A stretch of DNA of 61,517 bases from a virus. Lineage: Duplodnaviria; Caudoviricetes. The DNA is taken from positions 1 through 61,517 of IMG/VR virus record IMGVR_UViG_3300030389_004959. One strand, written 5' to 3'. Numbering within the stretch: position 1 is the stretch's first letter; each line of letters begins with the position of its first letter. The notes beneath the pieces are model-generated. The model was given only the letters and a program-made list of their open reading frames with translations. It searched no databases and was not told the origin of the DNA. The translations under genes were made by a program, and so were the position numbers. Shown one piece after another: positions 6,379-58,816 of the stretch.

Positions 6379-9300
6379 TGGCCACCGAACCAACGATGAG
6401 CGACGATCAGTTGTTGCTCAACAACAGCAGATCCAATCGTCAGTTTGTGCTGCCAGACAGCGCAGACGCAGAGTCAACGCTTCCTGATTTGTTGGGCGAG
6501 ACACTACCGACTTCTCCGGCCTACGAAATTGGGGAACCCAATATGGGTGCGTTGATTGTCGAAGATAAGATTCGTCAGCAAAACGACGATTCAGGATTTG
6601 CGAATCAACTGTTTGGTTCGTTGGAACAAACCATTTTTCAAGACAATCCTCGTTTGAGTGGTCGTGCAATCGAGGGAATGGGTCGCGTCACGGGTATTGA
6701 TGCGATGAAAGAGTTCGGAGAAAACATCGTCCGTGAGTTTGATGAGTCACCTGACAAAGAACGGTTCATCCCCCGAGTCGCATCGTATCGAGACGTGGAT
6801 GGTTTGAACTCTGCGTTGGACTACATGGGCTCGACGCTGGGACAAGGTCTGGGTTCAATCACCATGACGTTGGGTGGGGCTGCTGTGGGCGCCGGTGCTG
6901 GCGCCGCTGTGGGTTCTGTAGTTCCCGGTGCAGGAACTGCAGCAGGAGCCGTGTCAGGGGGCGTAGCGGGCGGTGCAGCCGCAAGTTCATTCTTGTTGAA
7001 CTATGGTGACACCTACGAGTATTTGATGGAACAGGAGGGCATGGACGCCGATGAGGCGGCAAATTTCGCATTGGTCCCCGGCTCCATCATGGCTGCTCTG
7101 GACGCATTCGCTGTTGGCAAGTTGCTGACACCGGTCAAACAAAACGTCGCGTCAAATGTCATTCGCAGAACCGGTCAACTGGCAAAGCGAGGTGCTGGGC
7201 TCGAGGCGATTACAGAGGCCGCACAGCAGGTGGTTCAGGAGTCTGCAGGAGAGTTGGCAGAAGCCACGGGCAAGGCTCCCAACGACATTGAGTTCCGTCA
7301 ACGTTTCGACAACACCGTGAATGCGTTTATTGCTGGTGGATTGACGGGTGGTTTCGTGGGCGCTGCGACATCACCGTTTCAGGTTCCGACTGAGGCTAAG
7401 CCGAAATCGCCGCCACCCTCGAGAGCTAGCTTCCAAGTAAAAGATGACGTCGATACTTCATTAGAAGATCTTCGACTACAAAACCGAGAACGAAAGACTC
7501 GGTTCGACGAACTCAATCAGGAGTTTGGAGCGGGATTCGTTTCACAGAGTGAGTACGATTATTACGCTGCCGAAAATCAAGCAGAGCATGGGTATTTGCA
7601 AACGTACATTGAGTTCTATGAATCTGGCGCCATTCCAAAGATTCAATCATCCCGATACCTCGAACGGCTTCGGAAAGATTTGTCCAAAGGCACAATCGAT
7701 CAGAACGTTTTCAATCTCAAATCTGCGTATCTTTCAGGAACTCTTCGGGCAGTTACCGATCTGAAAGACGAGAAAAAGTTCTCGTTCTACAGGGATCGTC
7801 AAACCGGTGCGGACATAATCAGGGAGAAGTTGATTGCTGCGCGACGACGCGGTGAAGTCGAAGAAGACGTGACAGAAATGACGTTGTGGCTGCTAGATAA
7901 AAATCCAAGCATCGCTACCAATCTTTCGATTTCAGTAAAAAAACGACCTGACGGAGATAAAAGCACCGCTGGACAATATCACAGCAATCCCATCGGCGGA
8001 TTGATGAGGGTTTTCAAAGGCGATGTGGCCAACAGAACGACCGCAGTCCACGAGATCTTGCACCATACGGAACGCACGCTTCCCGAAAACATCCGTCAGG
8101 GTATTTGGGACTCTTGGACAAAGTCCATTTCAAATGAGCTCGCCAACGCCGATGAGCTTGGTTCGGCATACCTTCGATGGGCTTTGGGTGAGGAAGTTTC
8201 GGATCCGAAGACCAATGAGAAAATTAATTCAAAGCGATTCGTAGAAGCGATTTACAACCAAAGACTTCCACGCACTTACTACCAGTACGTGAACCCCAGC
8301 GAGTTTTGGGCGGTGAACGCATCACGGATTGTTCAAGGCAGATTCGATGCGAGGAAAGCTTGGACATCGAGAGCCAGAGTTTGGTTGTCTGAGTTTATTG
8401 AAACAGCGAAGGGCGCCTTTGGTCTCAGATCTGATTCTGCAATCTTGGTCGGCTTGAAGTCTGTCATGGACGGCGATGGGACATTTGTTTCCAAAGATAT
8501 GTTGAGCGGGGGAACGATTTTCAGAGATGTTGACGAGAACGGTCAACCGATTCTTCAATCGATGCTGGATCGAGTGAAATCCGTCTTCAAGAAGCCAGAC
8601 GCTCCTGTTGTAGAAGAAGACCAACCGGGTGACCCAAGTCCGTATCCAACCATCGAAGAATTCGAACAGAGTCAATACGAAGAAAGTTTGGATACAGGAA
8701 CCAAGAAAAAGTTGTCTGAGTTGTTGGAGCAGATTGAGAAACTCAAGGAGTCGAGGAAGAAAGAAAACCTCGAGAAACTCAAACGTGTTTCAGAACAACT
8801 CAAGGATGATCCAAATCAGAATGTACGGCCTACCGTCACTGCAGATTTACCTGCAGTTCAATTGCGTCGAGGGCCACCAGTGGTTGGCACTGATTACGAA
8901 TTCAAATCCATTTTGGGTGAGTCAATCGAAGCACTGAAGCAAGACAAGATTGGTATTGATCAAGTCATACCCACTTTGAAGAGCACCGCGAAAAACAAAC
9001 TCAAAAGTGTTTTGACTGAAAGCGAAATCAAATTCGTTGGAATCCAACGATTCGTGGATCAGAAAAAAGCAGAGGGCCAGAAGTCCATCACAAAGCAGGA
9101 GCTACAAGAATATTTTGAAACCAACAAAGTTGACTTGAACGACAAAGTACAAATAAACCAAGTGCCTCCAAGTTTAAAGAAGGAAAAACAACGTGCAACC
9201 ATTTCAAACAGAGAGGCGTTGTTCGATTTGAGGCAACGGTTTTTCAATACCAGATCTCCCGTAAACATACTTCGACCTCTTCAAGTTGCATACGAACCGA

Positions 9301-33148: not shown

Positions 33149-33162
33149 ATTTGGAGAGCAGC

Positions 33163-36100
33163 GTGGCGGAAGAAACAGACACATTTTTAGAGGTATTTGG
33201 ACCTGCTCCAACCACTCCTGCCTCAGATGACGACCTTTTGATGGAATCGATGATTTCTCCGGTCAGTGTCGAGGAACCCGCAGAAGAAATCGAAGTTGAG
33301 GTCGAGCCCACTCCATCAGAAACACCTAATGTACTTACGGCTGAAGAGTCTCTGAGAAAGATTCGACGTAGGGGCAGAAGGGCTCCAGTGGGATTCGAAA
33401 GAAGACCTGAGACTATGGCTTCTGGAGCCGAGGAAAGTTCGTATCGCAAAATCAGAGACCATGTATTTCAAGGTCAAAGAAATGAGGGCAAAAGCGTCAA
33501 AGAGTCATACGACATTGCCCGTAAAACAGCCAACCATGCGTTTTTGTACGGCTTGCTTGATGACCCCCCATTAGAAGACTTCGAACCGCCTACAGGCATC
33601 GTACAGGCCACTGGACGAGTTCTGGCAAGACGACGTCTCATCGACACAAAAGATGCTGGTGATGCTCAGTCGTCTGCCGAAAAACGAATGGCAGATGTTC
33701 GAAAGCAAGAACGTGCATATCGGGCTCTGATCGAAGAAGAGGGGTCGATGGCAGCGTTGGCTAAAGCTTGGTCGAGCGGTCCAAAAATGACTCAGGAAGA
33801 AGCCGACGCAGCGGGTATTGATATTGCTGGTCGACAAGAGTTTTTTGGTAGGGACTTAGCAGAGGGCGTTGATCCCGAAGTTGGATTTTTAGAGGACCCT
33901 TACATCCCATATGGACTGAAAAACATCCCAAACCTGATTGAGCGGGCGGCAATCAAGACAAACATTCCGAACATGTTCGCGAATCTGTTTCTTGAAGAGG
34001 ACGAAAAACAGGCTTTCATCAAAGAAACAAACTTGGCACTCCCCACAGAAAACTTCGAAAGGATTGTTGAAATCGTCGAACTAAATTCAGAACGGGGCAA
34101 GACTGATGAGGAGACCAAAAAAGAGTTAAAGAATCAACTCGCGTTTGCTCTGACCATGCAATCATTTCGTGATTTGCCTTCTGGTTTTCAGGTAAAAGAA
34201 CCCTCGATCGATGCATTCGAAGCAGAGGTAACAGCCAACCCAGATTTTTTTGTGGAAAGCCCGCACGAGCCACTTGCGAACGCAGCAAAGTTGGTTTTGG
34301 ACAAAGCCGACAAAAAGAAAATTCAGTTCGAATTGAATCGTGTTGCTTTGGGATACATGCCAAACTCTGTGATTGCAGGCAGCATTCCATCTACCGTGAA
34401 CCTCATAGATGAGGCCGTCGCCTCCGCCCGTCGAGTCATCAAGGCCAAAGGTGAGGCAGGTAAAGCTTCAAGGGTGCTCGCTCAGAGATTTGCAGACACA
34501 ACATTCTCAACTGAAAAAATTAATGACGAAGTCATGGTCGTTGAGAACACCTTTGGCAAGGTGATGCGAATGCTTGGCTTGTTCACAGAAGGCGTTGCTG
34601 AACTCGATGTCACGGGTGGCACTCGTGCCGAAGATGTCAATGAGCTGTTGAGGTCTTTTGGATTTGGCGAGTCGACGATTCAGAAAAGAATGGACATTAC
34701 CAAACGATACGGTGTTCCTCTGCCGGGTCCAGACTTCTTGATGACGTTGCCTTTTCTTCCGGCGAGTAGAGATTTCTACTACAACTACGGCATTCGCGAC
34801 ATTGAATCTACTTGGCTGTCTCGTGTATTGGGTAATCTCGCGACTGGTTCGGTCGGAAACACCGTACACATGACGGACGAGGCACGAAAGGACGGATTCG
34901 AACGAGGGGACTCAGAGTTCCACACGAAGCTGTTCATCGGTGGTTCTTTAGATTTTATTGTCCCTTGGGAAAAACTTCACATTGGGCCTGTTGCTCACGC
35001 GACCAAGGCAGCGGCTCGAGGTCGTCAACTTGTAAAACTCTTAAATGCACCCGGATACAAGACAAGAGCATTTCTGGCAGGTGCATCTCCCGCACTTTAC
35101 GACCGTCTATACAACGTCTCCGAGCGTGCACAATTGGCATTGGACTACATTCAGTCTCGTGTTGGTAAAAAACCGACAGTTGAAAAACTGCAACGCATTC
35201 TTGATGAAGATGATTTGGCTCAACAGGCAGTCGGAAAAAAACAACCACTGCCCAAAGTTCAAGATGGTCGTCAGGTGGAAGGCCTCACTCTCAACGAACG
35301 AAACTTTGCCGAAGATTTAGTGCGTCGTATGGAAGGTGGTCAATCATTCCGTGCTGCCTTCGAAGACATCAAAAAGGGGTACAAGCCCGACGTGTTCGAA
35401 ACCGCTGCCGACGTAGCAACAGCAGTCACACGACATGTCATGGAAACCGACGAAAGTCTGTATCTATTTAGTCGTGGCAAGCCCGGTTCACCAAACTACA
35501 AAGCGGGAATCATTCCGTGGCAACTCGAACCACAAATCGAACGAGCCATGGGTGTGTCGGGAATCAAATACGCAGATGTCAAAGCCGCATTGAAGAACGA
35601 TATTGGTGGCGCGGCAACAGGGTACTTGGAGGGTCTCCGTGCACTCAGGAATTCAGGGTCCGATCTGGACACGTTAGATCTTCGCACATCGGAGCCGTAC
35701 CTTAAGTTTCGTAAAGGTCTCGAGTCGTTAGTCAAAAGTGGAGAAATGACACCCGAACAGAAGGTGGTTTTGCTCGCCATAATGGAGACCCGTGCTCACA
35801 ACTCCGCTGCTGCGACAATTTTCCGCACCATCAAAGAACCCGAAGATTTTTTCAAGAACGCGAAAATCAAAACAAGTCGCGTCAAAAATGCAGACGGCTC
35901 TACCGGACCCACAAACGTTCGAATTGTAGTTGGTAAAAAGACTGCAGATATCAATCTCAAGTCTGTTGATAAATTTATTGATATCCTCAAAGCAGACGAC
36001 AATCTTTCGATGCGTCGTTTGTTTGGAGGCGACAACGAACTATTGATCGATTTGATGGGTAAGGCTTGGACATCGCGGTTTATCGGTCGCTTCGACAATG

Positions 36101-39100
36101 TTGAAAACAGCAACAAAGCACAGAAGATGACCACGAACATGTTGAGTGACGACGGACGAAAAGCGGCCGAAGAAAAACTCCGTGCGATCATCGAGGCCAG
36201 CGGGCGATTGAGCACCGACACTGTGATTATGCGTGAGTTGTACGCAAATCTCGCATCTGTATACGGTCGGACGGGTGAGGCATTCAAAAAAGCAGCACTG
36301 ACGAAATCCAAGATTATTAAGTTGGACAACCTTTTGAAGCCCGATCAGTTCTTCAAAAACGCCGCTGTAGTTCTGAACAGGGGTCGTCCGCGTAGGCCGG
36401 GAACAATAGTACGTGTCAGTAACGACTTCGCGGAACGAGTGACCGGTGAAATCAAGCGTGCTGCGGGAACCAAACGAGTTTTCGCAGACATCGACGTGAA
36501 CCCAGAGTACGTCCGACAGTCAATGGGTGTCACGAAGCGTACAACACAAATAGACGCTCCCGATGCTTTGGCGAGAGCCGTAGGCTATGTCGTCGCGGAA
36601 ACGATGAAGAAGTCCGAACAGCAGCGGGCTCTTTCGGGAATGGCTTTGACACGTTTGACACCTGCAACTTTCGCAGCTCGAAAAAACGTGAAGGTGATTC
36701 GTAGTCGAGTCAACGGACGAATGGCTGCTGTGTTGGGAATCCAAAAGCGATCTGCCCTCACCGGCAACGTATACTTGGATGCGAAGAATCTTAAAGAAAT
36801 GGCTGATTCGAAGACTCAGACCCTCACATTGTCTCAGGGTCAACAAGATGCTTTCAAGGTGTTCTTGCAACGATTGGCATCGGAACCATTTGTTGCAAAT
36901 AAAATTCCAGACGAATTGGTAGGACCAAACGGTCGAGTTGACCAGATATCGTTTAAAAACTACAACCGAGTGGTTGAGCTCGTCACCGACGTAGAAGCCT
37001 CATCATTCTCTCGTCGAACTGTTTACACTGAAGCCATCCCCCGTTCGCTTGCCTATGCACTGCTTGGATCGATGCGGGCAAAAGGCGCTGATATCGTGCG
37101 TGCGACTGGATTTTTAGAAGATCAAATCGCGTTCGTTCGATCCAAGTTTTTCTTGGATGATCCACTGAGAATGGTTCGTCCAGAGTTAAAAGAGGTGATT
37201 GAGGCAGAGATTGCTAAATTGCAGCAGACGCGCTCTGAGGTAGTCAAGTTGATTCGTGATGCTCGTCGTGCAGATCCTGACGCTTCTATCGAACAAATAT
37301 TCGACATGTTGAGAAATCAACTCGAGACCGACATGAGAATCACCATGGATAAGGTTGATTTGATTGTAGGTGAGTACGATTTGGTAACGGGTAAACCCGG
37401 AAAGAAAGGCATGTTGCATATTCTGAATGAGTTTACGCAATCTGAAATTTCTAGAGTAAACCGAGATTTTGCCAAATCTCAAAAGAAACAAGCGCCCAGC
37501 TTCAGAGAGGGCGAACAAGCCATCGTAGAAGGCACAGACATTATCGAAGAACCCGGTGCACGCGCGAAGTACACCATGTTTGTTCCTCCAAACATTTCAA
37601 GAATCCAGTATCTCACTCGAAACACCACTCGGTCTATGCTTCAGCATTTGTGTGACACTGGAGGCATCAATGGAATCTCTGAACGTGTCAGCACCGCTCT
37701 TCAAATTTTGGAGGGATACTCCTCTGCTAAAGGAATGACCAAAGCAGATCTTGCAAAACTCAGTGATCAAGATCGAGTGATGATTGCATCAGCAATCATG
37801 ACTATTCGGGACCAGTTGACTGAACACGCAACATACCTCAAACACCGTGGCGGTAAGATTCTTTCGTCATTGGCAGGAAAACGATTTAATCTAGATCAGG
37901 TGCCAGAGTTCAAAAGTGGCACAAATTCAACTGCGGCAGCTGCAGCAGCGTACAAAGCCTTTCACCGTGGTGGTGACGGCTTTCGTATCTTGTACGACAC
38001 GATGATTCGTTATGCTGCAGAGGTTGGTGCCGATCCTGAAAAAATGGCTCGATATAGCCCTGCTCAAGCGTACTTGGAAATGGTTGTGCGATTGATGGCA
38101 GAAGATAAAATCTTGGGAATGTACGACCAACTGATCAAGGTTGGTATGCCCGGTGCGCGTGAAAACTACAGGATTCCACGTCGCAAAATATCACCAACCG
38201 GCGCAGAGTATTCAATCGAAACACCTCACGCCTTTCACATTCGTGTCCGCAACTACATGGACATGATTTTCAATCGTTCGAGGGACATCAGAGAACAAAT
38301 TGAACTACCTGATGGCAGGATTATTACTCGTGAAGCCGGTGGTCCCGGTGCGGATTATCCTACTGCTGCATTCGAACGTTTTCACAGACGATTTGATTCT
38401 GATCCAGAAAAGTTCGAAGACTTGGACGCAGCACTTGCAGCGGAGGAGGCACTCGTTCGTTTTGGAGTCAGAACGCAATCTGCCGGTGAAGCGTTGACAG
38501 AAATCGTGTTTCCTGACGGCTCGGTCACGTATGGACCCGCTGGTATCAAACAGTTTATCGATGATGCTATTGAACGCACTGCAGCAGTTGGTTTTTCCTA
38601 CGACACAGTAATTTCTAACAGGTTGAGTATTGAAGAGTTCGGCGCTCCCTTCGCTCCTGAGATTCAAAAAACGGGAAGAGTGAGAAGCTTTGCCTCTGCT
38701 GCATCTGCATTCAGAACTCTTCAGGATATGTTCCCGATTAGTTTTTCGATGATTAAACGCGGTATCACTACAGGTATTTTTGTACCGATACCTGCTTACT
38801 ACGCAGCAAACTTTTTGGGCGGCGCTCTGCAGTTGGTCACGGCTGTCAATCCAGTCAAAGCCGCAAGTATGCTAGTAAAAAATCCAAAGATGGTCGGCGC
38901 CGTGATGGCTCGCATGTTTGGTGATGGAGAGCAGTTCAGCAGCACGGCAGGTGGAGCCATAGGTGCAATCACTGGCGGTGTTGCAGGTGGGCTTGCAGCC
39001 GGTCCGTTGGGCGCAGTCGCAGGAGTAGTCGGCGGTGCAGCCGGAGGTGGATTTACAGGAAGAAAGATCGGACGCGGTTATCAACCATTCGGCAACCACA

Positions 39101-40410
39101 TCATCGTCGCGAAAAACGGAATGATTTACAACGCGGACCAAGTTGCGGAACTTTCGAATCTTTACGGCCTAAACTCAAGTTTCATTACGGCTGAAACCCA
39201 ACGTTCGATGGCAGACGATGTACAAAACTACCTGAGGGAAAACCCAACCCTTTTACAAAAAGGCAGTAAATACGGCAGTGCTTGGAACGATTACTTGGCC
39301 GACTGCGCTACTGCAATCGACAACTTTTATCGCGTATCTATTTTCGTCGATCAACTAAATGACGGTATTGCTCCAAGTCAGGCGGCATCTTTGGCTCGTC
39401 GAGCTGCGTTCGACTATGGAGCTCTGACCGACTTTGAAAAGAAGTTCATGCGTCAGTTCATTATGTTTTACAGCTATCTAAGCAAAAACATGGAACTGTT
39501 TTACGACACGATGATGACCGAACCCAGTCGAGTCACCAATCAACTACGATTGTCAAACGGTCTTCAAAGGGCAACATTGGAGGACGATCCCCAACTCGTC
39601 TTGCCTGCTTGGTTCCAGCCAAGAGCAATGGTAGGCATGCGAGATGCTTTGACAAATACACATGCAATCGACAGTCGTATGTATGTCATGCCTCCAATCC
39701 CTATCACAGACAGTTTGTTGACAATTCTTGACGTGTACGACACTGTGCGAGGCGATGAAGAATCAGTTCGGAAACTGTTTGCAAAACAGACACCGTGGGT
39801 GCAAGCGTTCGCTATCTCTGCTCTCAAGGTCGACCCATTCTATGGCACCGAAATTGATCGATACAACAAGGTTCCACCGTGGCTCATGGAGTTCGATTTG
39901 GCTATTACAGGTGGATTCCTTCGAAGGACACTGAAGGTTCGCAAAGAGACTCATCGAAACAATCGATTGAGGATTCTTGAAGGTGACGAGGATCGACAAT
40001 ATTTTCGAGCACACGAGGGAGTCGCTTGGTGGTACTTCAGGAATATGCTTCAGGTGCCGGGTGCAGGACGTTCAATGTTGGTGATCGACCAGTTGGATCG
40101 AACAAATCTTGGCGTAGTTGAAGGCATGACTGAGTTGCTTCGAACTCTTCGTGTACGAGCGGAGGAGGCTGGTCTTGCAGATGAACGAGAGTTTGAGTTC
40201 TTGGAAGGTGATACCGCTGATCCGAGAGTAGGATTCGATGTAGTTGACGAGTTTCTTGGCTTGTTTGGTATTCGAACACAACTTGTTCCGAACGCGGATT
40301 TTGCTCGAGCTCGAATATTGCAAGACATCAACATGACATATAAGAAGAAGTATCCACAATCTCAGGATCCGCTTGAGCAAGCACTCGAAAAGATCATAAT
40401 CGTCGAATAG
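33163..40410 (+). CDS. Giant internal virion/ejection protein (about 2415 aa)
   Basis: GGAG RBS before GTG 33163; glycine zipper near aa 1930-1965; C-terminal AAFDYGALTDFEKKFMRQFIMFYSY motif typical of large ejection proteins. Confidence 0.7.
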   Translation: MAEETDTFLEVFGPAPTTPASDDDLLMESMISPVSVEEPAEEIEVEVEPTPSETPNVLTAEESLRKIRRRGRRAPVGFERRPETMASGAEESSYRKIRDHVFQGQRNEGKSVKESYDIARKTANHAFLYGLLDDPPLEDFEPPTGIVQATGRVLARRRLIDTKDAGDAQSSAEKRMADVRKQERAYRALIEEEGSMAALAKAWSSGPKMTQEEADAAGIDIAGRQEFFGRDLAEGVDPEVGFLEDPYIPYGLKNIPNLIERAAIKTNIPNMFANLFLEEDEKQAFIKETNLALPTENFERIVEIVELNSERGKTDEETKKELKNQLAFALTMQSFRDLPSGFQVKEPSIDAFEAEVTANPDFFVESPHEPLANAAKLVLDKADKKKIQFELNRVALGYMPNSVIAGSIPSTVNLIDEAVASARRVIKAKGEAGKASRVLAQRFADTTFSTEKINDEVMVVENTFGKVMRMLGLFTEGVAELDVTGGTRAEDVNELLRSFGFGESTIQKRMDITKRYGVPLPGPDFLMTLPFLPASRDFYYNYGIRDIESTWLSRVLGNLATGSVGNTVHMTDEARKDGFERGDSEFHTKLFIGGSLDFIVPWEKLHIGPVAHATKAAARGRQLVKLLNAPGYKTRAFLAGASPALYDRLYNVSERAQLALDYIQSRVGKKPTVEKLQRILDEDDLAQQAVGKKQPLPKVQDGRQVEGLTLNERNFAEDLVRRMEGGQSFRAAFEDIKKGYKPDVFETAADVATAVTRHVMETDESLYLFSRGKPGSPNYKAGIIPWQLEPQIERAMGVSGIKYADVKAALKNDIGGAATGYLEGLRALRNSGSDLDTLDLRTSEPYLKFRKGLESLVKSGEMTPEQKVVLLAIMETRAHNSAAATIFRTIKEPEDFFKNAKIKTSRVKNADGSTGPTNVRIVVGKKTADINLKSVDKFIDILKADDNLSMRRLFGGDNELLIDLMGKAWTSRFIGRFDNVENSNKAQKMTTNMLSDDGRKAAEEKLRAIIEASGRLSTDTVIMRELYANLASVYGRTGEAFKKAALTKSKIIKLDNLLKPDQFFKNAAVVLNRGRPRRPGTIVRVSNDFAERVTGEIKRAAGTKRVFADIDVNPEYVRQSMGVTKRTTQIDAPDALARAVGYVVAETMKKSEQQRALSGMALTRLTPATFAARKNVKVIRSRVNGRMAAVLGIQKRSALTGNVYLDAKNLKEMADSKTQTLTLSQGQQDAFKVFLQRLASEPFVANKIPDELVGPNGRVDQISFKNYNRVVELVTDVEASSFSRRTVYTEAIPRSLAYALLGSMRAKGADIVRATGFLEDQIAFVRSKFFLDDPLRMVRPELKEVIEAEIAKLQQTRSEVVKLIRDARRADPDASIEQIFDMLRNQLETDMRITMDKVDLIVGEYDLVTGKPGKKGMLHILNEFTQSEISRVNRDFAKSQKKQAPSFREGEQAIVEGTDIIEEPGARAKYTMFVPPNISRIQYLTRNTTRSMLQHLCDTGGINGISERVSTALQILEGYSSAKGMTKADLAKLSDQDRVMIASAIMTIRDQLTEHATYLKHRGGKILSSLAGKRFNLDQVPEFKSGTNSTAAAAAAYKAFHRGGDGFRILYDTMIRYAAEVGADPEKMARYSPAQAYLEMVVRLMAEDKILGMYDQLIKVGMPGARENYRIPRRKISPTGAEYSIETPHAFHIRVRNYMDMIFNRSRDIREQIELPDGRIITREAGGPGADYPTAAFERFHRRFDSDPEKFEDLDAALAAEEALVRFGVRTQSAGEALTEIVFPDGSVTYGPAGIKQFIDDAIERTAAVGFSYDTVISNRLSIEEFGAPFAPEIQKTGRVRSFASAASAFRTLQDMFPISFSMIKRGITTGIFVPIPAYYAANFLGGALQLVTAVNPVKAASMLVKNPKMVGAVMARMFGDGEQFSSTAGGAIGAITGGVAGGLAAGPLGAVAGVVGGAAGGGFTGRKIGRGYQPFGNHIIVAKNGMIYNADQVAELSNLYGLNSSFITAETQRSMADDVQNYLRENPTLLQKGSKYGSAWNDYLADCATAIDNFYRVSIFVDQLNDGIAPSQAASLARRAAFDYGALTDFEKKFMRQFIMFYSYLSKNMELFYDTMMTEPSRVTNQLRLSNGLQRATLEDDPQLVLPAWFQPRAMVGMRDALTNTHAIDSRMYVMPPIPITDSLLTILDVYDTVRGDEESVRKLFAKQTPWVQAFAISALKVDPFYGTEIDRYNKVPPWLMEFDLAITGGFLRRTLKVRKETHRNNRLRILEGDEDRQYFRAHEGVAWWYFRNMLQVPGAGRSMLVIDQLDRTNLGVVEGMTELLRTLRVRAEEAGLADEREFEFLEGDTADPRVGFDVVDEFLGLFGIRTQLVPNADFARARILQDINMTYKKKYPQSQDPLEQALEKIIIVE

Positions 40411-46422: not shown

Positions 46423-46827
46423 ATGAGTGAGATTTGGAAAATGGAACCTGTGACTTTGACAGCAATCGCCATTCTGGCCGCTCTCGGGGCTGGGTTTGGT
46501 GCGGGATGGGGTCTGAAGCCTGATGCTGGAGCAAAAGCGATTGAAGCCCAAACAGAAGCGATTGCTGAGCTCAACAGCGGTAATCAAGAGTTGGTTGCCA
46601 AAGTTCAACAAGTCGCAGTCACAAATGCAGAGAAAGAAGCGTCGATTGCTGAAAAACTGACCGACGTTCCCCCACCTTGCGTTCCAGATTTAGGGGGAGA
46701 CCCCATGTCTATGCAGTGCATGTGGGCTCTTTGTATTAGAACAGGTGAAACAGATAGGCAACGATGCGAGCCTGCAAAGTTGACCGATCAACTATTGAGT
46801 TCATATAGTTGTCCTGAACCTGATTGA
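46423..46827 (+). CDS. Membrane-anchored coiled-coil protein with Cys-rich C-terminus (spanin-like?)
   Basis: LTAIAILAALGAGFGAGWGL TM segment, coiled coil, five Cys. Confidence 0.5.
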   Translation: MSEIWKMEPVTLTAIAILAALGAGFGAGWGLKPDAGAKAIEAQTEAIAELNSGNQELVAKVQQVAVTNAEKEASIAEKLTDVPPPCVPDLGGDPMSMQCMWALCIRTGETDRQRCEPAKLTDQLLSSYSCPEPD

Positions 46828-46838
46828 TTGGAGCTGAC

Positions 46839-47135
46839 ATGGATATGAAAGACTTCGCAGTGCCGGGAATGACAGTTATTTTTGCGGCTGGTGTGTCGTT
46901 TGCCTCATTCGAATCGTCTGCTCAAGATGTCGAGGACTTGAGTCAACGACTCAATGCAGTCGAATCGAGCGTGGGTAAGCAAGAGGTCGTCGATGTTAAA
47001 ATTGAAGGTATTGAAAAACGTCTTGATAAAATGGAAGACATTGTTCAAAAGATGCTGGACATTCAGCAGCGGCAGGCTGTCAACATCGCACAAATCTGCC
47101 AAGCAACCAACGCCAACTGCAGTAGTGGTAACTGA
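46839..47135 (+). CDS. Membrane-anchored coiled-coil protein
   Basis: GGAG RBS; hydrophobic N-terminus then heptads IEKRLDKMEDIV. Confidence 0.6.
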   Translation: MDMKDFAVPGMTVIFAAGVSFASFESSAQDVEDLSQRLNAVESSVGKQEVVDVKIEGIEKRLDKMEDIVQKMLDIQQRQAVNIAQICQATNANCSSGN

Positions 47136-47136
47136 T

Positions 47137-47724
47137 ATGCATCCCGATATTCTGGACTACGCGAAATCCTTAGGCCACACCGTGTTTTTGAACGGTGAAT
47201 ACAACATCAACATCATCGGTATCCGCAGTGCGAATCACGAACCAAATCGTTTCGACGATACGATTCATTGTGTATACAAGGATGAGGATGGTGATTGGAT
47301 TCAAAAGTCTTGGCCCTGTACAACAGAACCGGGCAAGTATTGGCTCGAGAATCCAACCAATGTGAACGGAACTGCCGTTTTGGTTCCCGGTCAGTATCGC
47401 AGCGTTTGGAAGATTGACCTGCATCAAGGAAAGTACGAGGCTCTGTGTCAGCGTAACGGCACTGTGAAGGTCTATCGAGACGACAACAAAGACGACATCA
47501 TTGACTGTGACCCTGACAGCATCAGTGAGGGTTACTTCGGCATCAATATCCACAAGGCAGGAGCGCATTCCACTCAAATCGATAAGTGGTCTGCAGGATG
47601 CCAAGTGTTTGCCAACGAGTCTGACTTTGACGAGTTTATGGACGTCTGTCGTAAAGCGCGAGACAAGTGGGGCAACGCATTTTCCTACACGTTGATTCTT
47701 GAAGATGAGAAAGGCTTGGTCTGA
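47137..47724 (+). CDS. Putative endolysin with L,D-transpeptidase (YkuD)-like His/Cys motif
   Basis: CTTEPG, LVPGQY, FGINIHKAG......WSAGCQVF; flanked by holin-like genes. Confidence 0.65.
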   Translation: MHPDILDYAKSLGHTVFLNGEYNINIIGIRSANHEPNRFDDTIHCVYKDEDGDWIQKSWPCTTEPGKYWLENPTNVNGTAVLVPGQYRSVWKIDLHQGKYEALCQRNGTVKVYRDDNKDDIIDCDPDSISEGYFGINIHKAGAHSTQIDKWSAGCQVFANESDFDEFMDVCRKARDKWGNAFSYTLILEDEKGLV

Positions 47725-48032
47725 TGGAGGCGTTGGTCGACTCACTATTAGCAGACGGCCACCTCGGAGTATTTGCGGCCTTCTTGCTGTATCAGTTCAT
47801 CACGATGCAGAAGCGTCTCGATAAGCTTGTGGAAGGCTTTCAAGAACAAGTGGAACAAATGCGGGCGGAGTACAACGAGCGTACTGAGAGGATGCGTGAG
47901 CGTTACGACAATGTCATCAAAGAATATCGTGACCGGGAAGACTCACAGTCTAAGGACTTTTTGATTGCACGTACAGCGGTCCACAATGACATCGTGGCCA
48001 AGCTTGAACGCATTTTGGATCGAAACAAGTAG
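47724..48032 (+). CDS. Holin-like protein (single TM plus coiled coil)
   Basis: GHLGVFAAFLLYQFI then a charged coiled coil; BhlA/UviB-like layout; TGATG coupling. Confidence 0.55.
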   Translation: MEALVDSLLADGHLGVFAAFLLYQFITMQKRLDKLVEGFQEQVEQMRAEYNERTERMRERYDNVIKEYRDREDSQSKDFLIARTAVHNDIVAKLERILDRNK

Positions 48033-48038
48033 GTCCTG

Positions 48039-48677
48039 ATGGAGTGCGTGGTACAAGAAGGGTCTGACTGTAAACTTGATGTGGGCTCACCGATTCGCAT
48101 TTACGATGAAAAGCCTGTTGAAGAGGAGAAAAAACCTGTGGCAAACGAAACGAAACAAGAGGCACCGAAACCTCCCCCGACACCCGCAAAGGCCCCGGAT
48201 CCTGTTCCAGAGCCTCCACCAGCGGTTGTTGAGACTGCAGCAACTCCTGCTGTGCCTGAGCTTGTAGAGTCTGTTGGGGTTGCTCAGGACATCACAGCGG
48301 CTGCTGACGCCGCTCAATCTCTTGGGGGAGACTATGCCCCCATGGTAGCGATTGCATTAGCTGGTATGGCTGTTGCCGGTGGATCCAAGGCGTGGAGCTA
48401 CTACCGTGACCGTGCCGAGCAGAAGCATGAACAAGAGATGCAAAAGCTCAAGATCGAAGCACAGTCCAAAGGGATGGACGGACAACAACCTCCTGCGTGT
48501 CAAGCCGCAACACAAAAGATGCAGGCTGAGTTGGACGACGTAAAGTCAAGGCTGAGCGCCGTTCAGAAGAAGACATCGATGATCTCGGCAGACTTTGACG
48601 GCGAAGATGTCGAGCGTCAGATCAAGCGCATGAAAAAGCGAATCGACGAGTTGTTTGAGATTACCGAGCAGAAATGA
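48039..48677 (+). CDS. Membrane protein with Pro-rich linker and coiled coil
   Basis: PKPPPTPAKAPDPVPEPPP; MVAIALAGMAVAGG TM segment; C-terminal heptads. Confidence 0.65.
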   Translation: MECVVQEGSDCKLDVGSPIRIYDEKPVEEEKKPVANETKQEAPKPPPTPAKAPDPVPEPPPAVVETAATPAVPELVESVGVAQDITAAADAAQSLGGDYAPMVAIALAGMAVAGGSKAWSYYRDRAEQKHEQEMQKLKIEAQSKGMDGQQPPACQAATQKMQAELDDVKSRLSAVQKKTSMISADFDGEDVERQIKRMKKRIDELFEITEQK

Positions 48678-49057
48678 TTGTCACTGCGCTGATATTTTTG
48701 GGTACGTTTGTCATCCTTCCAGCGGGCTTGAGTTTTGCTATTGAGGGAGACGGGCGCCCCAAAAAAACTAAATCGAAACCCGTCGAAGTTGTTCCAGAAC
48801 CCGAGCCAGAGCTCGAGCCAGAACCTGAACCTGAAATCATTGTTGAGCCGCAGCCAGAACCTGAAATGGTGCCAACAACTGTCGTGACCATCTCACCCAA
48901 GTGTGAAGATGAAGATTCCATCACTCGACTTCGTAAAGCCACATTCAACTTCTTATCTCAAGTAAACAACTTGCCTTCAGACATATCGTTCAATATCGTC
49001 GACTGCACACAAGAAGGAATGGTCGACATCGAGATTATCGAGGTTCCGAAGGACTAA
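48674..49057 (+). CDS. Membrane-anchored protein with (Glu-Pro)n linker
   Basis: N-terminal TM/signal sequence; PEPEPELEPEPEPE. Confidence 0.65.
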   Translation: MIVTALIFLGTFVILPAGLSFAIEGDGRPKKTKSKPVEVVPEPEPELEPEPEPEIIVEPQPEPEMVPTTVVTISPKCEDEDSITRLRKATFNFLSQVNNLPSDISFNIVDCTQEGMVDIEIIEVPKD

Positions 49058-49063
49058 GCCCAA

Positions 49064-49130
49064 CCCCCCACCCGGTAGGAATCGCCCATGCTGCCGCCCC
49101 GAGCGTGGGACAAGCGATATGGGTGGGGGG
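49064..49130. terminator. Long interrupted hairpin between convergent operons
   Basis: CCCCCCACCC/GGGTGGGGGG, ATCGC/GCGAT and CCATGCT/AGCGTGG nested stems. Confidence 0.65.
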
Positions 49131-49141
49131 CTAGGGGGACG

Positions 49142-49747
49142 TTATTTGCCAGTTGGAGCTGCTGCTACACCTTGTGTGGGTGCGATTGCATCGTTGAGCA
49201 TGTCCAGAACCCTCGACAATCCCTCTGGGGGTCCATCATCGCGAGCAACGACCTTTACGTCATACTTTGCGCTGTTGTCGCTGCTACGGCTGTTCTCGCT
49301 GTGATTAGCCACAGATCCGTGCACGGTGACCTCACAGGAAAACAGACCTGCGTTGTACTTTGCTTTAGCCGTCAGATCGGCTTTGCTGTCAGAGGTAGTC
49401 TTGCTTGATGTCGACGACTTTACCTCCATGGTGAACCGTACCTCTGCTTCTTTGACCGAAAGCGAAGGAGTGTTGATGATGGCAAGCAGCGGGACCTGAA
49501 GGTCGACCTTCTGCATCGTCGTGTTGCCTGCAGCGTCTTGCACTGGCTTATTGAAGCCAAAGTCTACGGTGCGTGCTGAAAGGTTGCCCTTTCCGTCATC
49601 GTTGAGACCAACGTCCTTGATGAAGTCACTTGATGCCTTTGCAAGCAGTGTTTGAGCATTACAGGCGGCTTTGAGTGGACCACCAATCAGTTGCTCCATT
49701 GGGAGACCACCAAACTGGTCTGACATCTTTACGAGTTGATCTGCCAT
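49142..49747 (-). CDS. DUF2589 family protein (long form)
   Basis: FGGLPMEQLIGGPLKAACNAQ..LA, VPLLAII..PSL, FTMEVKSS, SAKY.V.V.A....PPEGLSRVLDML. Confidence 0.85.
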   Translation of the reverse strand: MADQLVKMSDQFGGLPMEQLIGGPLKAACNAQTLLAKASSDFIKDVGLNDDGKGNLSARTVDFGFNKPVQDAAGNTTMQKVDLQVPLLAIINTPSLSVKEAEVRFTMEVKSSTSSKTTSDSKADLTAKAKYNAGLFSCEVTVHGSVANHSENSRSSDNSAKYDVKVVARDDGPPEGLSRVLDMLNDAIAPTQGVAAAPTGK

Positions 49748-49756
49748 GAATGACTC

Positions 49757-50251
49757 CTACGGAAGCAGTTTGATGAGTTGGTCATCGATTCTTGCATAAC
49801 CCTCTGGGGGCTCACTGCCCTTGAAGATCAACTTCAGTTTAGCAGCGTTGCTTTCTTTTTGGAACCAAGACGGTGTTTTGGCGCATGGCCTCACCATCAA
49901 CTTGCCTTTTTTCTTGTCTGATGTGAGACCAGAGATCTCGACCGACATCTCAACCTCAAGCGTATCCACCCGAAGACTTTGTCCAGTAGTGAGGGACTGG
50001 AGCGGGACCGGTACTCTTTTGTGTACCAGTACTCCATCTTCCCATGTTGGCAGCTCCATGACGACCATGCGAGGTGCATATACGTGTCTTCCGTCGTCAT
50101 CGGTAATCGGCTTTCCATTCTCATCGACCTTCAACTCCCAAAACTCTTGGTTGGTAATTGAATCCAACTCATGACGTTCTGCAATGTCGGTCGCCGCTAT
50201 AACAGCGGACTGAATAGAATGAACGATGTCATCTAAAGAATGGTCAGCCAT
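49757..50251 (-). CDS. DUF2589 family protein (short form)
   Basis: LDDIVHSIQSAV, VPLQSL....SLRVDTLEVEM, LIFKGSEPPEGYARI. Confidence 0.75.
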   Translation of the reverse strand: MADHSLDDIVHSIQSAVIAATDIAERHELDSITNQEFWELKVDENGKPITDDDGRHVYAPRMVVMELPTWEDGVLVHKRVPVPLQSLTTGQSLRVDTLEVEMSVEISGLTSDKKKGKLMVRPCAKTPSWFQKESNAAKLKLIFKGSEPPEGYARIDDQLIKLLP

Positions 50252-50266
50252 GACAAACGACTTTCA

Positions 50267-50929
50267 CTACTCTTGAAAATCGCTTGGCATTTCTTCGAAC
50301 TTGTCATCGGCTTTTGTTTCGGCTTCAGCCTTGGTCTGAGGAGTAGTAGACGCTGCAAACGCGGCGATGAATTGCTTCATGAGTTCTTTCAGCTCGGTAT
50401 CATTGGAGGCGTTTCCTTGCGCCTGAATCGCTTCGATCAACTCCTTGTTCGAGCCACTGACATCCACTTGAACATCGACCAAAGGAACACCATTTTGGTA
50501 TTTCAGATCCTTTTCATTTTTAGCATCGACGTATTTGACGGCAAGCATAATGGAATCGTCATTCGACAAGTTAGGCCGGATATCCACCTCGTAATCCATG
50601 ATGACCCATTGACCATTTGGTTGCACCAACCTGATGTGTTTGTGCATTGATTGCAGGGTCTTTTCGATTTGATCACGATAAATCGCTTCGTCCACGAAGT
50701 TGAGCATACCAGAGAGCCGCCATTCTGCCTTTTTGATTTTGGACCGGTACCCTGAAAACTCTTTCTTCGATTTTTTGTCGATCACTCGATTGGACATTTC
50801 ATCCTTCAAGATGTCGAGCAAAACTCCGGGTTGAATGATGAACTTGCGCTGCTCCTTGGAGCTAGCTTTCTCGGACATCATCAATTTGTACGGCGTGGTG
50901 TTGCTTGCAGCTTCGTCGAGTAGCGACAT
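50267..50929 (-). CDS. Hypothetical protein
   Basis: AGGAGA RBS; 220 aa inside the operon. Confidence 0.75.
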   Translation of the reverse strand: MSLLDEAASNTTPYKLMMSEKASSKEQRKFIIQPGVLLDILKDEMSNRVIDKKSKKEFSGYRSKIKKAEWRLSGMLNFVDEAIYRDQIEKTLQSMHKHIRLVQPNGQWVIMDYEVDIRPNLSNDDSIMLAVKYVDAKNEKDLKYQNGVPLVDVQVDVSGSNKELIEAIQAQGNASNDTELKELMKQFIAAFAASTTPQTKAEAETKADDKFEEMPSDFQE

Positions 50930-50937
50930 TTTGTCTC

Positions 50938-51813
50938 CTAAGACGTAAAGTCTTCTTCAGGTTCGGGGAGTTGTTGTTTTGCCTTCTCTACCAACTTCTT
51001 GACTTTCGATTGGCGTTTCGGCTTGGATTCAATTTCTTCTGATTGAACATCAATAACATCTTCAACAGATTTGTTGTCTTGATCATCAACATTTTCATCT
51101 ACGGTGTTGATTTCAACGGTGTTTGAAAAATCCGATTGGATGTCGTGCTCCAAAACGGCTGATGTTTTTGGCGTGAGCGGCAGGTACTTACAGATTCTAC
51201 GGATGACGGTCTTTCGCCACATTTCTTCCGTGTGCTGCGCCCAAGGGCCAGACTCTGGGCTTCGTGATGATTTTCGGATCTTGTTGATTTGATCTTTTCT
51301 CATGACCTCAACTTGTCGTTGACCGTCTTTGAAAAAGCATACTGCATAGGCCAAAAGCAAATCACCGGGATTGTCGTGACACTTTTTATGTTTAAGTACT
51401 TCACCATTTTCTAAATCAAAATGATGTTCAAACTCATCGTTTTCGTACACAACCTCTGCCTTGAAGTGTGCTACTTCTCCTGATCGTTTCACGAGGTCCA
51501 TCAGCCCTGTGTACTCAATCCACAACTCGGCATTGTAACCTTTGGATTTTTTATCCCACATGGGTACGAGAGATGCTCGATGAAGAACTCCACCTGCGAC
51601 CAAGTCCAGCTCACACGCCTTGGCAAGAGCCATATAGACTGACGCTGGGCTGCATTGAACCAGTCGTTCATTTTTGACAGCCTCGAACATCGCAACTCGA
51701 ATGATCCTATCCACGTCTGTGCCGGGTGGAGCAATCTTGATCAGGCTTTGTCGTTTGCCTTCCAAGTATTCATTGAGTTGAGTCACCTTGTCTCTGGTCG
51801 ATAATGCAGTCAT
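50938..51813 (-). CDS. recT: RecT family single-strand annealing protein
   Basis: LVQCSPASV, IEYTGLMDLVKRSG, VVYENDEF, PW..HTEEMWRKTVIRRICKYLP. Confidence 0.93.
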   Translation of the reverse strand: MTALSTRDKVTQLNEYLEGKRQSLIKIAPPGTDVDRIIRVAMFEAVKNERLVQCSPASVYMALAKACELDLVAGGVLHRASLVPMWDKKSKGYNAELWIEYTGLMDLVKRSGEVAHFKAEVVYENDEFEHHFDLENGEVLKHKKCHDNPGDLLLAYAVCFFKDGQRQVEVMRKDQINKIRKSSRSPESGPWAQHTEEMWRKTVIRRICKYLPLTPKTSAVLEHDIQSDFSNTVEINTVDENVDDQDNKSVEDVIDVQSEEIESKPKRQSKVKKLVEKAKQQLPEPEEDFTS

Positions 51814-52766
51814 TTTTCCTCTGAAACCCGCAGTGTCCGGGTGCTTGGTACTTCGATAACGAACTCTTGATACAAATCTGGATGGGCTTCTCGGAATGCA
51901 TCTTTGTCGAAGACTTTTCTAGCTCGACCTTTTTTCCAAGTTGCGACTCCTGCGATGCCCAAAGAATCACCAATTTTAGACCGGAGCAGGTTTTCCAACT
52001 CTTTTTTCTTGGTCTGAACTTTCTTCAGTTCTTTTTTGACTGCAATAATTTTCTCGTGGAGGTCTTTTTCTGCAGTCGTTGCAACCCTCAAATCATCACT
52101 TTTTATTCTTGGATTCAAGGCTGCGAGAACCTTCATGCAAGCATCTGTAGCATCTACATCTGGAGGGACTTGTCGCTCAACATGGGTGTCCCACCAATCA
52201 CATGCAACCTGCAGTATTGATTCTCCCAACTCCTTGTCTCTTTCGATTCGATACACTCGGAAGTCATCGAGACTAAAAAGCGTTGCGATGTCCCAATAAG
52301 GGGCATCAAATATTTCCATGTAGACACGCATCTGTATTTCTACATCTAGTGGGACATCAGTTGTTCCACTGTCTCCCCAGCCCCTTCGAAACCGTCGCGT
52401 CTTTGCGTCCATTCCAAACCGAACGCCATTGTGCTCAACAAGTCGATCTGGTGTTCCGAAGATGCGTGGCCGGGTTTGATGCCATGTCAGTCCTTCTTCC
52501 CAAAGCTTGCACCCTTCCCCTAGATGAAGCTGGTAAAACTCACAAACATATTTTTCCATCACCCGACCACGCATCAAAATTGCATCGTCGTAATCATCAG
52601 TGTCGAACAGACCTGTTTTCTCAGACCAGATCTTGAAAGCACTCCCCTCGAATGAACCAACTTTTTCTGATGCATCGGCTCCTGCCATCATGATGCAGGC
52701 AACATCCGTGCCACCCAAACCTTTCTTGCGTTCGGCAAGCCAAGCCTGTCGTTCTTGTTGGTTCAT
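51810..52766 (-). CDS. YqaJ / lambda-exonuclease family recombinase
   Basis: WLAERKKGLGGTD, GRVME, GTPDRL, MDAKT, QMRVYM. Confidence 0.92.
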   Translation of the reverse strand: MNQQERQAWLAERKKGLGGTDVACIMMAGADASEKVGSFEGSAFKIWSEKTGLFDTDDYDDAILMRGRVMEKYVCEFYQLHLGEGCKLWEEGLTWHQTRPRIFGTPDRLVEHNGVRFGMDAKTRRFRRGWGDSGTTDVPLDVEIQMRVYMEIFDAPYWDIATLFSLDDFRVYRIERDKELGESILQVACDWWDTHVERQVPPDVDATDACMKVLAALNPRIKSDDLRVATTAEKDLHEKIIAVKKELKKVQTKKKELENLLRSKIGDSLGIAGVATWKKGRARKVFDKDAFREAHPDLYQEFVIEVPSTRTLRVSEEK

Positions 52767-52784: not shown

Positions 52785-52813
52785 AGTCTACTGATTAACT
52801 GTAAGTGTGTCAA
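52785..52813 (-). promoter_or_regulatory. Sigma70-type promoter for the recombination operon
   Basis: TTGACA, 17 nt, TAGACT. Confidence 0.8.
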
Positions 52814-57823: not shown

Positions 57824-58816
57824 TTAGTCTTTCGACTCCCCTGCGGTGTCACACATACCCCATCGGACGCATCCCATTTCTCCGGGGGGAGCTGCGAACA
57901 ACTCGAACTGTTTGCCACCCCATTTCGTTCGTGACCATTCGACCACTCGTTTGATGGGCCAAGTGTCCCCATTTCGTTTTCCCGTCTCTGGGTCGGGTCT
58001 ACTTGTCGGGTTCTGAAACCACGTCGGAGGATTCAGCCCCAGAGAATCAATCGATTCTCCTCGAGCTTCGTACCGTGCAATCGCCAACTGATGTACGTCT
58101 CGTTCAAGATCCGCGAGAAGTTCAATCCGCTCTGGAAAGTTTGCTGCCATCATTCGAATCTCGCTTTTGCGAGCAAACACGCAAGGGTAGCACCCTACCC
58201 GTTCAGAAGGATTTTTACCCAAGTACAACGGGTTGGGTCTGACCCCATACTTTTGATGAATCTCGATAACGTCTTCGACTTTCCATTTATGAATGGGTCG
58301 CCATACTTCACAGTCAAAAGTGTCCGACCACTCCCATTCGTCCATGGCGGCACGGGATGCAGACTCTTGTGCACGTATTCCAACGACGTTCAGCGGCTCA
58401 TCTTCCATGTTCTTGAGGTAGTCTCGAGCTGGGAACACTTTGACCGATTGGGTGCACCATCGACGGATTCGACTGGGAAACATGCCTTTGTGAATCACCC
58501 AGCGAACCATCGGAGAGTACCAGCCAAGACGTTTTTCATACTTTTGCGCCAAGGCCTCGAGCTCTGGCGTGGCCAACTCTTTCTTCGCCACCAGACGTTT
58601 GATTGGACCTACGACGTCAGGAAGGTAGTTCTCAACGTAATCGTAGGTATCAGGGTGCTCCCATCCTGTATCGAAGAAGATGGCCTCATAGTCGAGACCA
58701 AGCTCCTTCATATACAGACATGCAGCCGTGGAGTCCTTCCCTCCACTGACTGAAACCACAACAGTGCGGTCTCCGATTTTTTCTTTGACCTCTTCAATGT
58801 CGTGGTAGTCGATCAT
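57824..58816 (-). CDS. PAPS reductase family (PP-loop) protein
   Basis: VSVSGGKDSTA, FFDTGWEHPDTY, RWCT...K..P, GIRAQESASRA, RPIHKW, RVGCYPC. Confidence 0.9.
   Translation of the reverse strand: MIDYHDIEEVKEKIGDRTVVVSVSGGKDSTAACLYMKELGLDYEAIFFDTGWEHPDTYDYVENYLPDVVGPIKRLVAKKELATPELEALAQKYEKRLGWYSPMVRWVIHKGMFPSRIRRWCTQSVKVFPARDYLKNMEDEPLNVVGIRAQESASRAAMDEWEWSDTFDCEVWRPIHKWKVEDVIEIHQKYGVRPNPLYLGKNPSERVGCYPCVFARKSEIRMMAANFPERIELLADLERDVHQLAIARYEARGESIDSLGLNPPTWFQNPTSRPDPETGKRNGDTWPIKRVVEWSRTKWGGKQFELFAAPPGEMGCVRWGMCDTAGESKD

Follow-up and report, generated by a model that had tools for sequence, protein, structure and literature searches.

A DUF2589 paralog pair of an uncultured marine phage as a candidate two-subunit beta-barrel pore with a holin-like role

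Holins are small proteins with alpha-helical transmembrane segments, and type 10 secretion is protein release of the holin/endolysin type. The stems of beta-barrel pore formers are built as a polar stalk and an amphipathic two-stranded tip with an aromatic turn; in the aerolysin/ETX-MTX2 toxins and the anthrax protective antigen, a longer polar stem ends in an amphipathic hairpin, which measures about 2 × 10 residues, is flanked by Ser/Thr-rich stretches and has an aromatic tip. Herein, we analyzed two adjacent genes of the Pfam family DUF2589 (PF11655) in the tailed-phage record IMGVR_UViG_3300030389_004959 of IMG/VR, whose whole length of 61,517 bp is called the window below. The pair comprises a long paralog (49142..49747, minus strand, an open reading frame (ORF) of 201 amino acids (aa), PF11655 E 1.4e-43) and a short paralog (49757..50251, minus strand, an ORF of 164 aa, PF11655 E 9e-16), with a gap of 9 nucleotides (nt) between them. 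Judging from sequence and gene neighborhood, we tentatively read the two proteins as subunits of a soluble-to-membrane beta-barrel pore that would act on the cytoplasmic membrane from inside, like a holin, and we give this reading somewhat less than an even chance.

The long protein resembles the aerolysin/ETX-MTX2 toxins in its amphipathic hairpin with Ser/Thr-rich flanks, but it does not look like a secreted attacker, as neither DUF2589 protein has an N-terminal hydrophobic segment. With holins the pair would share the job of opening the cytoplasmic membrane. It differs from them in being a pair of soluble-looking paralogs without a transmembrane segment, far more conserved than its neighbors; the maximum of the 19-residue Kyte-Doolittle mean was 0.98 for the long and 0.94 for the short protein, below 1 in both and against a threshold of 1.6. 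The likeness to type 10 secretion lies in candidate membrane-lesion genes that stand together with a wall hydrolase and, at times, with signal-less toxin-like cargo (RIP, colicin-type DNase). However, most DUF2589 operons have no canonical holin. A literature search that combined holin, beta-hairpin, pore-forming toxin and endolysin returned unrelated reviews only.

Pepco, EACC1 and the bacterial gasdermins are likewise small signal-less proteins, which a preprint presents as proposed or shown to form pores, beta-barrel or large, in the membrane of their own producer; there, Pepco and EACC1 are cytoplasmic pore-forming effectors of prokaryotes, and Pepco is a single protein of 117 aa that C-terminal cleavage activates (bioRxiv 10.1101/2025.11.14.688446). 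The present locus differs in having two paralogs, to which bacteria add a third gene of 88 aa, and in matching no family beyond DUF2589. By analogy, Pepco and EACC1 are a precedent in kind and not relatives of the DUF2589 pair. For DUF2589/PF11655 itself, a full-text literature search, with supplementary family lists outside its reach, gave passing mentions only and no function, in agreement with the original prediction that the family has no established function. It appears in Archaeoglobus fulgidus as the up-regulated tandem cluster AF0414-AF0417 (PMC3949148) and for Bacteroides fragilis as a table row (PMC11402942). Tandem paralogs are typical of the family, as seen in 79 of 80 bacterial loci and in AF0414-AF0417 (PMC3949148). 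The present phage lineage differs from the bacterial relatives in lacking the third gene, c1, which 78 of the 80 bacterial loci possess.

Both proteins scored well above the Pfam gathering score of 23 bits (149.3 bits for long and 59 bits for short), and both were recovered again as DUF2589 in a genome search. BLASTP detected no similarity between them (E 3.1), whereas a hidden Markov model of the short type matched the long protein (E 6.2e-13), and hhalign joined the short-family and long-family alignments with 99.1% probability (E 1.5e-18, 173 columns). Because profiles align the two proteins though BLASTP does not, long and short are, by their alignments, old and diverged paralogs, and the tandem DUF2589 paralogs named in the original prediction are upheld. 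Beyond DUF2589, neither protein matched any Pfam family, and neither matched PHROGs, the structural-protein PHROGs included, NCBIfam or PADLOC; at E ≤ 0.1, PADLOC-DB 2.0.0 gave nothing for long, short or the 220-aa ORF upstream of them. An ESM Atlas search returned DUF2589 clusters only. A signal peptide had been predicted to be missing, and the Kyte-Doolittle scan, which is not a dedicated signal-peptide predictor, found no N-terminal hydrophobic or transmembrane segment in either protein.

Searches with the long protein yielded 1,103 matches at E ≤ 0.001 among 1,396 candidates, the best 120 of which were 82-99% identical and mostly without a source name, and those with the short protein yielded 135 matches at E ≤ 0.001 among 178 candidates. 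At 50% clustering, 1,693 DUF2589 representatives reached E ≤ 0.001. In GenBank phage records, tblastn with the long protein found one match only, a 4-kb fecal fragment, and tblastn with the short protein and two divergent relatives found none. A search for relatives of 353-2000 aa gave 121 matches, spanning 353-426 aa. Among the 120 listed, PF11655 was the only domain in all but one, which also carried PF18029, and no fusion to a wall-hydrolase domain was present. Three inspected bacterial long forms have a C-terminal extension of about 190 residues, rich in Lys, Glu and Asn and coiled-coil-looking by eye. Some bacterial and metagenomic long-type relatives (among P0262, P0248, P0271, P0276 and P0287) have an Ala/Thr/Gly-rich insertion of about 150 residues in the loop that precedes the VPLL strand. 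Large additions at the surface are tolerated by the core.

The hairpin of the long protein is encoded at 49271..49417 on the minus strand (aa 111-159) and consists of a polar Ser/Thr stalk and an amphipathic tip; the amphipathic distal part (aa 123-146, 49310..49381, minus strand) turns at aa 132-135. We built an alignment of the long protein and 69 representatives (30-53% identity) and derived a column profile from the 30 homologs in the length class of the window (71 residues over aa 100-170). In this profile, columns 101-110 alternate as a core strand, columns 111-122 are wholly polar, columns 123-131 alternate with the consensus A-S-L-D-A-S-A-K-A, columns 132-135 form the turn with the consensus G-W-G-P, columns 136-146 alternate with the consensus F-S-A-S-V-K-V-S-G-S-V, columns 147-159 are again wholly polar, and columns 160-168 alternate as a second core strand. 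The hydrophobic columns of the hairpin were 123, 125, 127, 129 and 131 on one side of the turn and 136, 138, 140, 142 and 146 on the other, and the hydrophobic fraction of the alternating columns was 0.63-0.97 versus 0.00-0.03. Because this pattern is conserved over homologs of 30-50% identity, it is far above chance.

The spacing between the MEVKS and TR motifs was 40 or 44 residues in most of the 70 homologs. Correspondingly, the region of aa 100-170 measured 71 residues in 30 of the 70 and 67 residues in 22, the two classes making up 52 of the 70. This four-residue step equals two residues per strand, and therefore the strand register is kept. At the same position, the short family has a variable, charged segment without a Ser/Thr-rich stretch. 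Within the phage lineage, the hairpin is as constrained as the core, with 92-99% identity per 10-residue block. The original prediction had placed a hairpin with Ser/Thr-rich flanks at aa 123-146 of the long protein, with none in the short one, and had likened it to the hairpins of beta-barrel pore formers; the position, the contrast between the paralogs and the likeness all held up, the last through the conserved column profile of the 30 homologs.

AlphaFold2 modeled the long protein from the 70-row alignment with a predicted local distance difference test score (pLDDT) of 77.4 and a predicted template modeling score of 0.56. The model consists of a helix (residues 17-47), a small sheet, a hairpin with strands at 100-133 and 136-169, and a helix (175-188) after the PPEG motif. 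The hairpin is drawn extended and away from the core rather than packed on it, and to the extent that the model is right, it is not buried in a globular fold. The short protein was modeled with the same core topology minus the long hairpin (pLDDT 71.7). Against solved structures, the best Foldseek hits of the two models were not significant (E 0.30 and 0.48). Profile searches of the PDB sequences gave nothing below E 2.4, and searches of the same sequences that started from the two proteins themselves or from the alignments A1, A3 and A6 gave nothing below E 0.4. The non-significant Foldseek rows included aerolysin, LSL, parasporin-2 and the anthrax protective-antigen pore; other weak, non-significant rows were the FliF MS-ring, tail tube polymers, leviviral coats and baseplate parts. 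For kinship with the aerolysin/ETX family, the pore formers named in the original prediction, no significant match in fold or sequence was found, and the likeness to aerolysin-type toxins is confined to the hairpin. Predictions of a complex between long and short (A1, A3) scored 0.01 and 0.10 against a mark of 0.32; they were run without controls and are evidence neither for nor against a complex.

To see how the pair is kept among related phages, we collected 80 viral loci from IMG/VR (L001-L080). In 74 of them, the long gene was preceded by a gene of the short type; in five of the other six the contig edge left no room for it, and the sixth had no anchor. The cassette of two genes proposed earlier is therefore a regular arrangement, seen in these 74 viral loci and in 79 of 80 bacterial ones. 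The gap between short and long was 6-9 nt in 60 of the 80 viral loci. Fourteen loci (L001, L003, L005, L006, L010, L012, L014, L018, L022, L023, L042, L047, L065 and L077) held an extra, variable ORF of 83-363 aa between the two genes, and several of these unrelated inserts share a tail resembling LMENMRKK directly ahead of the start of the long gene; the junction resembles a hot spot for insertions in which the translation-start region is conserved.

Identities to the window were compared only across loci that hold all the genes compared. In 41 such loci, the identity was 91% for long and 89% for short, and 43%, 48% and 47% for the upstream genes orf220 (the 220-aa ORF), RecT and YqaJ, respectively. 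In 20 loci that allowed comparison with the lysis side, it was 92% for long, 75% for the endolysin, 78% for the Rz-like protein and 50% for a 127-aa protein. The ratio of nonsynonymous to synonymous substitution rates (dN/dS) was about 0.04 for long and about 0.05 for short, rough values because dS was about 1-2 and thus near saturation. As dN/dS is low at this dS, the high identity of the pair reflects selection and not recent transfer. On these comparisons, the pair is under very strong purifying selection and is the most constrained element of its neighborhood. By the same measure, its evolution follows the lysis side more closely than the recombination side; the upstream recombination genes are co-oriented with the pair yet evolve separately.

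Relatives in bacteria were sought in one genome per species, which gave 424 relatives among 454 candidate stretches, and the best 80 of the 424 (L083-L162, 47-59% identity) were analyzed. The carriers include Xanthomonas, Luteibacter, Massilia, Paraburkholderia, Vibrio and Marinomonas, as well as Desulfobacterota, Myxococcota, Lachnospiraceae, Selenomonadaceae and Treponema. At least two DUF2589 paralogs were present in 79 of the 80 loci, the lone exception lying at a contig edge. The cassette had a third member in 78 of the 80, the conserved gene c1 of about 88 aa, located after or between the DUF2589 genes (for example L084:8658-8924); its commonest position is directly after long, and the order short-long-c1 occurs in 44 loci. 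The c1 protein has invariant R, G, P, N, P, G, F, H, Y, G, F and P positions and a single, nearly invariant Cys, and neither a Pfam family nor a PDB relative was found for it. Neither the window nor its 80 viral relatives possess c1, but two viral contigs outside this set, L163 and L197, do. The small ORFs found after the pair in the viral loci L172, L211 and L212 were considered as c1 and proved unrelated (hhalign probability <1%). The distribution of DUF2589 is rare and patchy, with 3 carriers among 301 genomes sampled evenly in the class of one carrier, that carrier included, and none among 14 control genomes.

The neighbors of the bacterial cassettes were defined as same-strand ORFs chained to the cassette by gaps of <200 nt, on mechanical ORF calls. 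A Pfam scan covered the 119 downstream neighbors in the 80 loci, and the 25 most frequent of 44 families were listed, each of the other 19 having one or two members at most; the 62 upstream neighbors lay outside the scan. Enzymes of the cell wall recurred among the 119, namely Glyco_hydro_19 (GH19) in 13, PG_binding_1 in 8, CHAP in 6, Muramidase in 1 and Peptidase_M15_3 in 1. The others included DUF4231 membrane proteins (6), Phage_integrase (6), RIP (3), Trans_reg_C (3) and Colicin-DNase/WHH (2). GH19 neighbors belong to Oxalobacteraceae and Burkholderiaceae, PG_binding_1 to loci of the Desulfobacterota type, and CHAP to Lachnospiraceae. Because the wall-active families sit in different lineages, the counts amount to few independent events, yet these involve unrelated enzyme families. 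Representative GH19 (4), CHAP (2) and PG_binding_1 (2) proteins had no hydrophobic segment anywhere, the N-terminus included. Near the cassette, hydrophobic segments were missing from all same-strand genes in 7 of the 13 GH19 loci, and in 3 more the only one was in the long-type DUF2589 ORF. Toxin-like genes that lack export signals come after some of the bacterial cassettes, of the RIP family in 3 loci and of the colicin-type DNase/WHH kind in 2 (L104:9378-10013, L095:4339-5328 and homologs), and the Lachnospiraceae cassettes combine DUF4231, CHAP and an integrase. The listed 25 families of the downstream neighbors included neither the Reb (R-body) family, for which the upstream neighbors were outside the scan, nor a protease or sensor family.

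Nine loci outside the lineage of the window came from another viral scan, which started from a different lead sequence. In L179, short and long are followed after 3 nt by an endolysin and then by small membrane proteins. In L211, the order is short, long, an 88-aa ORF and an endolysin (phrog_7, E 4.8e-19). L172 has a holin with two transmembrane segments (phrog_2359, E 8.8e-7) ahead of short and long, amid head and virion genes, and in L212 a protein with two transmembrane segments precedes the pair. In L182 and L183 the pair is flanked by an SbcD-like nuclease and an exonuclease and does not adjoin an endolysin or holin, and the 195-kb contig L197 has long, c1, two ORFs and short in this order. 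In position, the pair resembles a holin in some lineages, standing directly beside signal-less endolysins or a holin in L179, L211 and L172 and with signal-less wall enzymes in bacteria, but not in L182 and L183; in the window it lies next to the lysis region on the other strand.

The virus of the window is uncultured. Its record is linear and an estimated 85% complete, its DNA is present in marine metagenome runs from several studies, and the nearest cultured phage by the large terminase is Roseobacter phage CRP-7, at 27.5% identity only. A structural and lysis block occupies the plus strand and a replication and recombination block the minus strand, the DUF2589 pair forming the 3' end of the latter. 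The minus-strand order is a YqaJ/RecE-like exonuclease (51810-52766), RecT (50938-51813), orf220 (50267-50929), short and long. No match for orf220 was found in Pfam, PHROGs, NCBIfam or PADLOC, and its Atlas model was poor. The original prediction had joined the pair to these recombination genes in one operon, driven early in infection by a promoter at 52813. The gene order agrees with such an operon. However, the TTGACA-17-TAGACT site that starts at 52813 carries no statistical weight, because fewer promoter-like sites were found in the region (3) than in shuffled sequences (6.2 ± 2.3). Early expression was predicted from this chance-level match and is unsupported; other phage lineages have the pair in late or lysis regions. 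Elsewhere in the replication block, a gene resembling phosphoadenosine-phosphosulfate reductase lies at 57824-58816 on the minus strand (phrog_424, E 9.9e-58), and the plus strand has two very large ORFs at 6378-11759 (1,793 aa) and 33151-40410 (2,419 aa).

Convergent to the pair, the lysis region (46824..49057, plus strand) ends 85 nt from the long gene. It encodes, all on the plus strand, a 103-aa protein with one hydrophobic segment (46824-47135), an endolysin (ORF 46954-47724, with the PHROG family match over aa 89-248), a 102-aa protein between the endolysin and the Rz-like protein, the Rz-like protein itself (48039-48677, by PHROG match) and a 127-aa protein with an N-terminal hydrophobic segment. 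The small proteins of the region had no PHROG holin match. The listed endolysin ORF overlaps the upstream gene of the 103-aa protein (46824-47135), and translation probably begins at the in-frame Met near 47137, which would give an endolysin of about 195 aa without a hydrophobic segment. The spacer between the convergent operons (49058..49141) contains a G+C-rich inverted repeat with a 15-bp stem, possibly a two-way terminator, though the case is weak; its fold energy of −46.2 kcal/mol is not significant against shuffles (z only −1.45).

From the paralogy, the conservation of the pair, the hairpin pattern, the lack of signal and transmembrane segments and the recurrent neighborhood, we infer a soluble assembly of the two proteins that could convert to a beta-barrel pore. 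The hairpin of the long paralog, about 50 residues with a polar Ser/Thr-rich base and amphipathic far strands of about 10 residues each around an aromatic-glycine turn, would join with those of several other long copies into a barrel, the tip of which would cross the lipid bilayer. The short paralog, sharing the core without the hairpin, may be an obligatory partner in the ring, or else a cap, nucleator or brake. As both proteins are made in the cytoplasm without export signals, the target would be the host cytoplasmic membrane, reached from inside. Breaching of the envelope is suggested because the recurrent neighbors are cell-wall hydrolases without export signals; used like a holin, the pore would open the membrane so that signal-less wall hydrolases could reach the wall at the end of infection. 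Several findings weigh against this reading. No fold match to any pore former was found with the models, and the hairpin tip (residues 117-153) was modeled at low confidence, with pLDDT <50. The pair adjoins the lysis region of the window but on the opposite strand, that of the recombination genes, and other candidate holins are encoded in the window. Among the scanned neighbors, a wall enzyme is lacking in at least 51 of the 80 bacterial loci, and the pair is unusually conserved for a lysis gene.

The same inside-out membrane pore might serve another purpose, as an effector of abortive infection or competition in bacteria and in superinfection exclusion or host shut-off by depolarization in phages, in essence the use put forward in the original prediction. 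The rare and patchy distribution (3 of 301 genomes of one class, 0 of 14 controls) would suit such an effector, as would the integrases that follow the cassette in 6 loci, the RIP (3 loci), colicin-DNase/WHH (2) and DUF4231 (6) neighbors, the co-orientation of the pair with recombination genes, early in many phages, and the precedent of Pepco, EACC1 and gasdermin. However, no PADLOC defense model matched, no protease or sensor appeared among the listed families of the downstream neighbors, one would not expect an accessory exclusion gene to surpass all others of its region in conservation throughout a lineage, and the recurrent wall hydrolases are left unexplained, so that we consider this purpose unlikely. 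For two of the uses named in the original prediction, superinfection exclusion and toxicity to grazers, we found nothing that points to either, the recurrent neighbors being wall hydrolases. It is equally conceivable that no membrane is involved and that the proteins build a soluble ring, tube, cage or filament, the hairpins forming a free-standing beta-barrel or a cross-beta spine, as a carrier or scaffold for wall hydrolases and toxins or as a part of the virion. Conservation at the level of structural proteins fits this, and the hairpin stalk is polar on both faces, like barrels that stand in solvent; ring and tube proteins are among the weak, non-significant fold rows, the L172 pair lies amid head and virion genes, and many bacterial long forms have the coiled-coil-looking C-terminal extension, as seen by eye in three sequences. 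Nevertheless, an alternating hydrophobic face with an aromatic turn at the end of the stalk is hard to explain in a soluble assembly, structural-protein PHROGs matched neither protein, and the bacterial cassettes lie outside recognizable virion gene sets, which makes this alternative improbable as well.

In the window, the pair starts 15 nt after the last ORF of the recombination module and on the same strand, and in L182 and L183 it lies between the SbcD-like nuclease and the exonuclease, as might be expected of an accessory of YqaJ-RecT recombination, for instance a DNA-end or membrane-anchoring factor. Yet identity is only 43-48% for the recombination genes against about 90% for the pair, RecT and YqaJ are not among the 25 listed families of the 119 downstream bacterial neighbors (upstream neighbors being outside the scan), the pair belongs to lysis or late regions in other phage lineages, and no nucleic-acid-binding feature was seen in the proteins; a role of this kind is very hard to credit. 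What probability remains falls to explanations outside those considered here.

We return to the holin-like pore and to what it would mean beyond this phage. With considerable doubt, short/long DUF2589 pairs may be put forward as an ancient, previously unrecognized class of membrane-lesion systems, soluble two-paralog beta-barrel "holins" of tailed phages and bacteria that would free signal-less wall hydrolases and toxins by a route distinct from alpha-helical holins, spanins and the known secretion systems. The family is large, abundant in marine viral metagenomes, strongly selected and without a solved relative, and its absence from the 14 control genomes may explain why it is unstudied. A solved DUF2589 structure would very likely define a new fold. 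If the reading is true, phage lysis and bacterial protein release would have a third way through the cytoplasmic membrane, one built on a beta-barrel and not on a helical holin.

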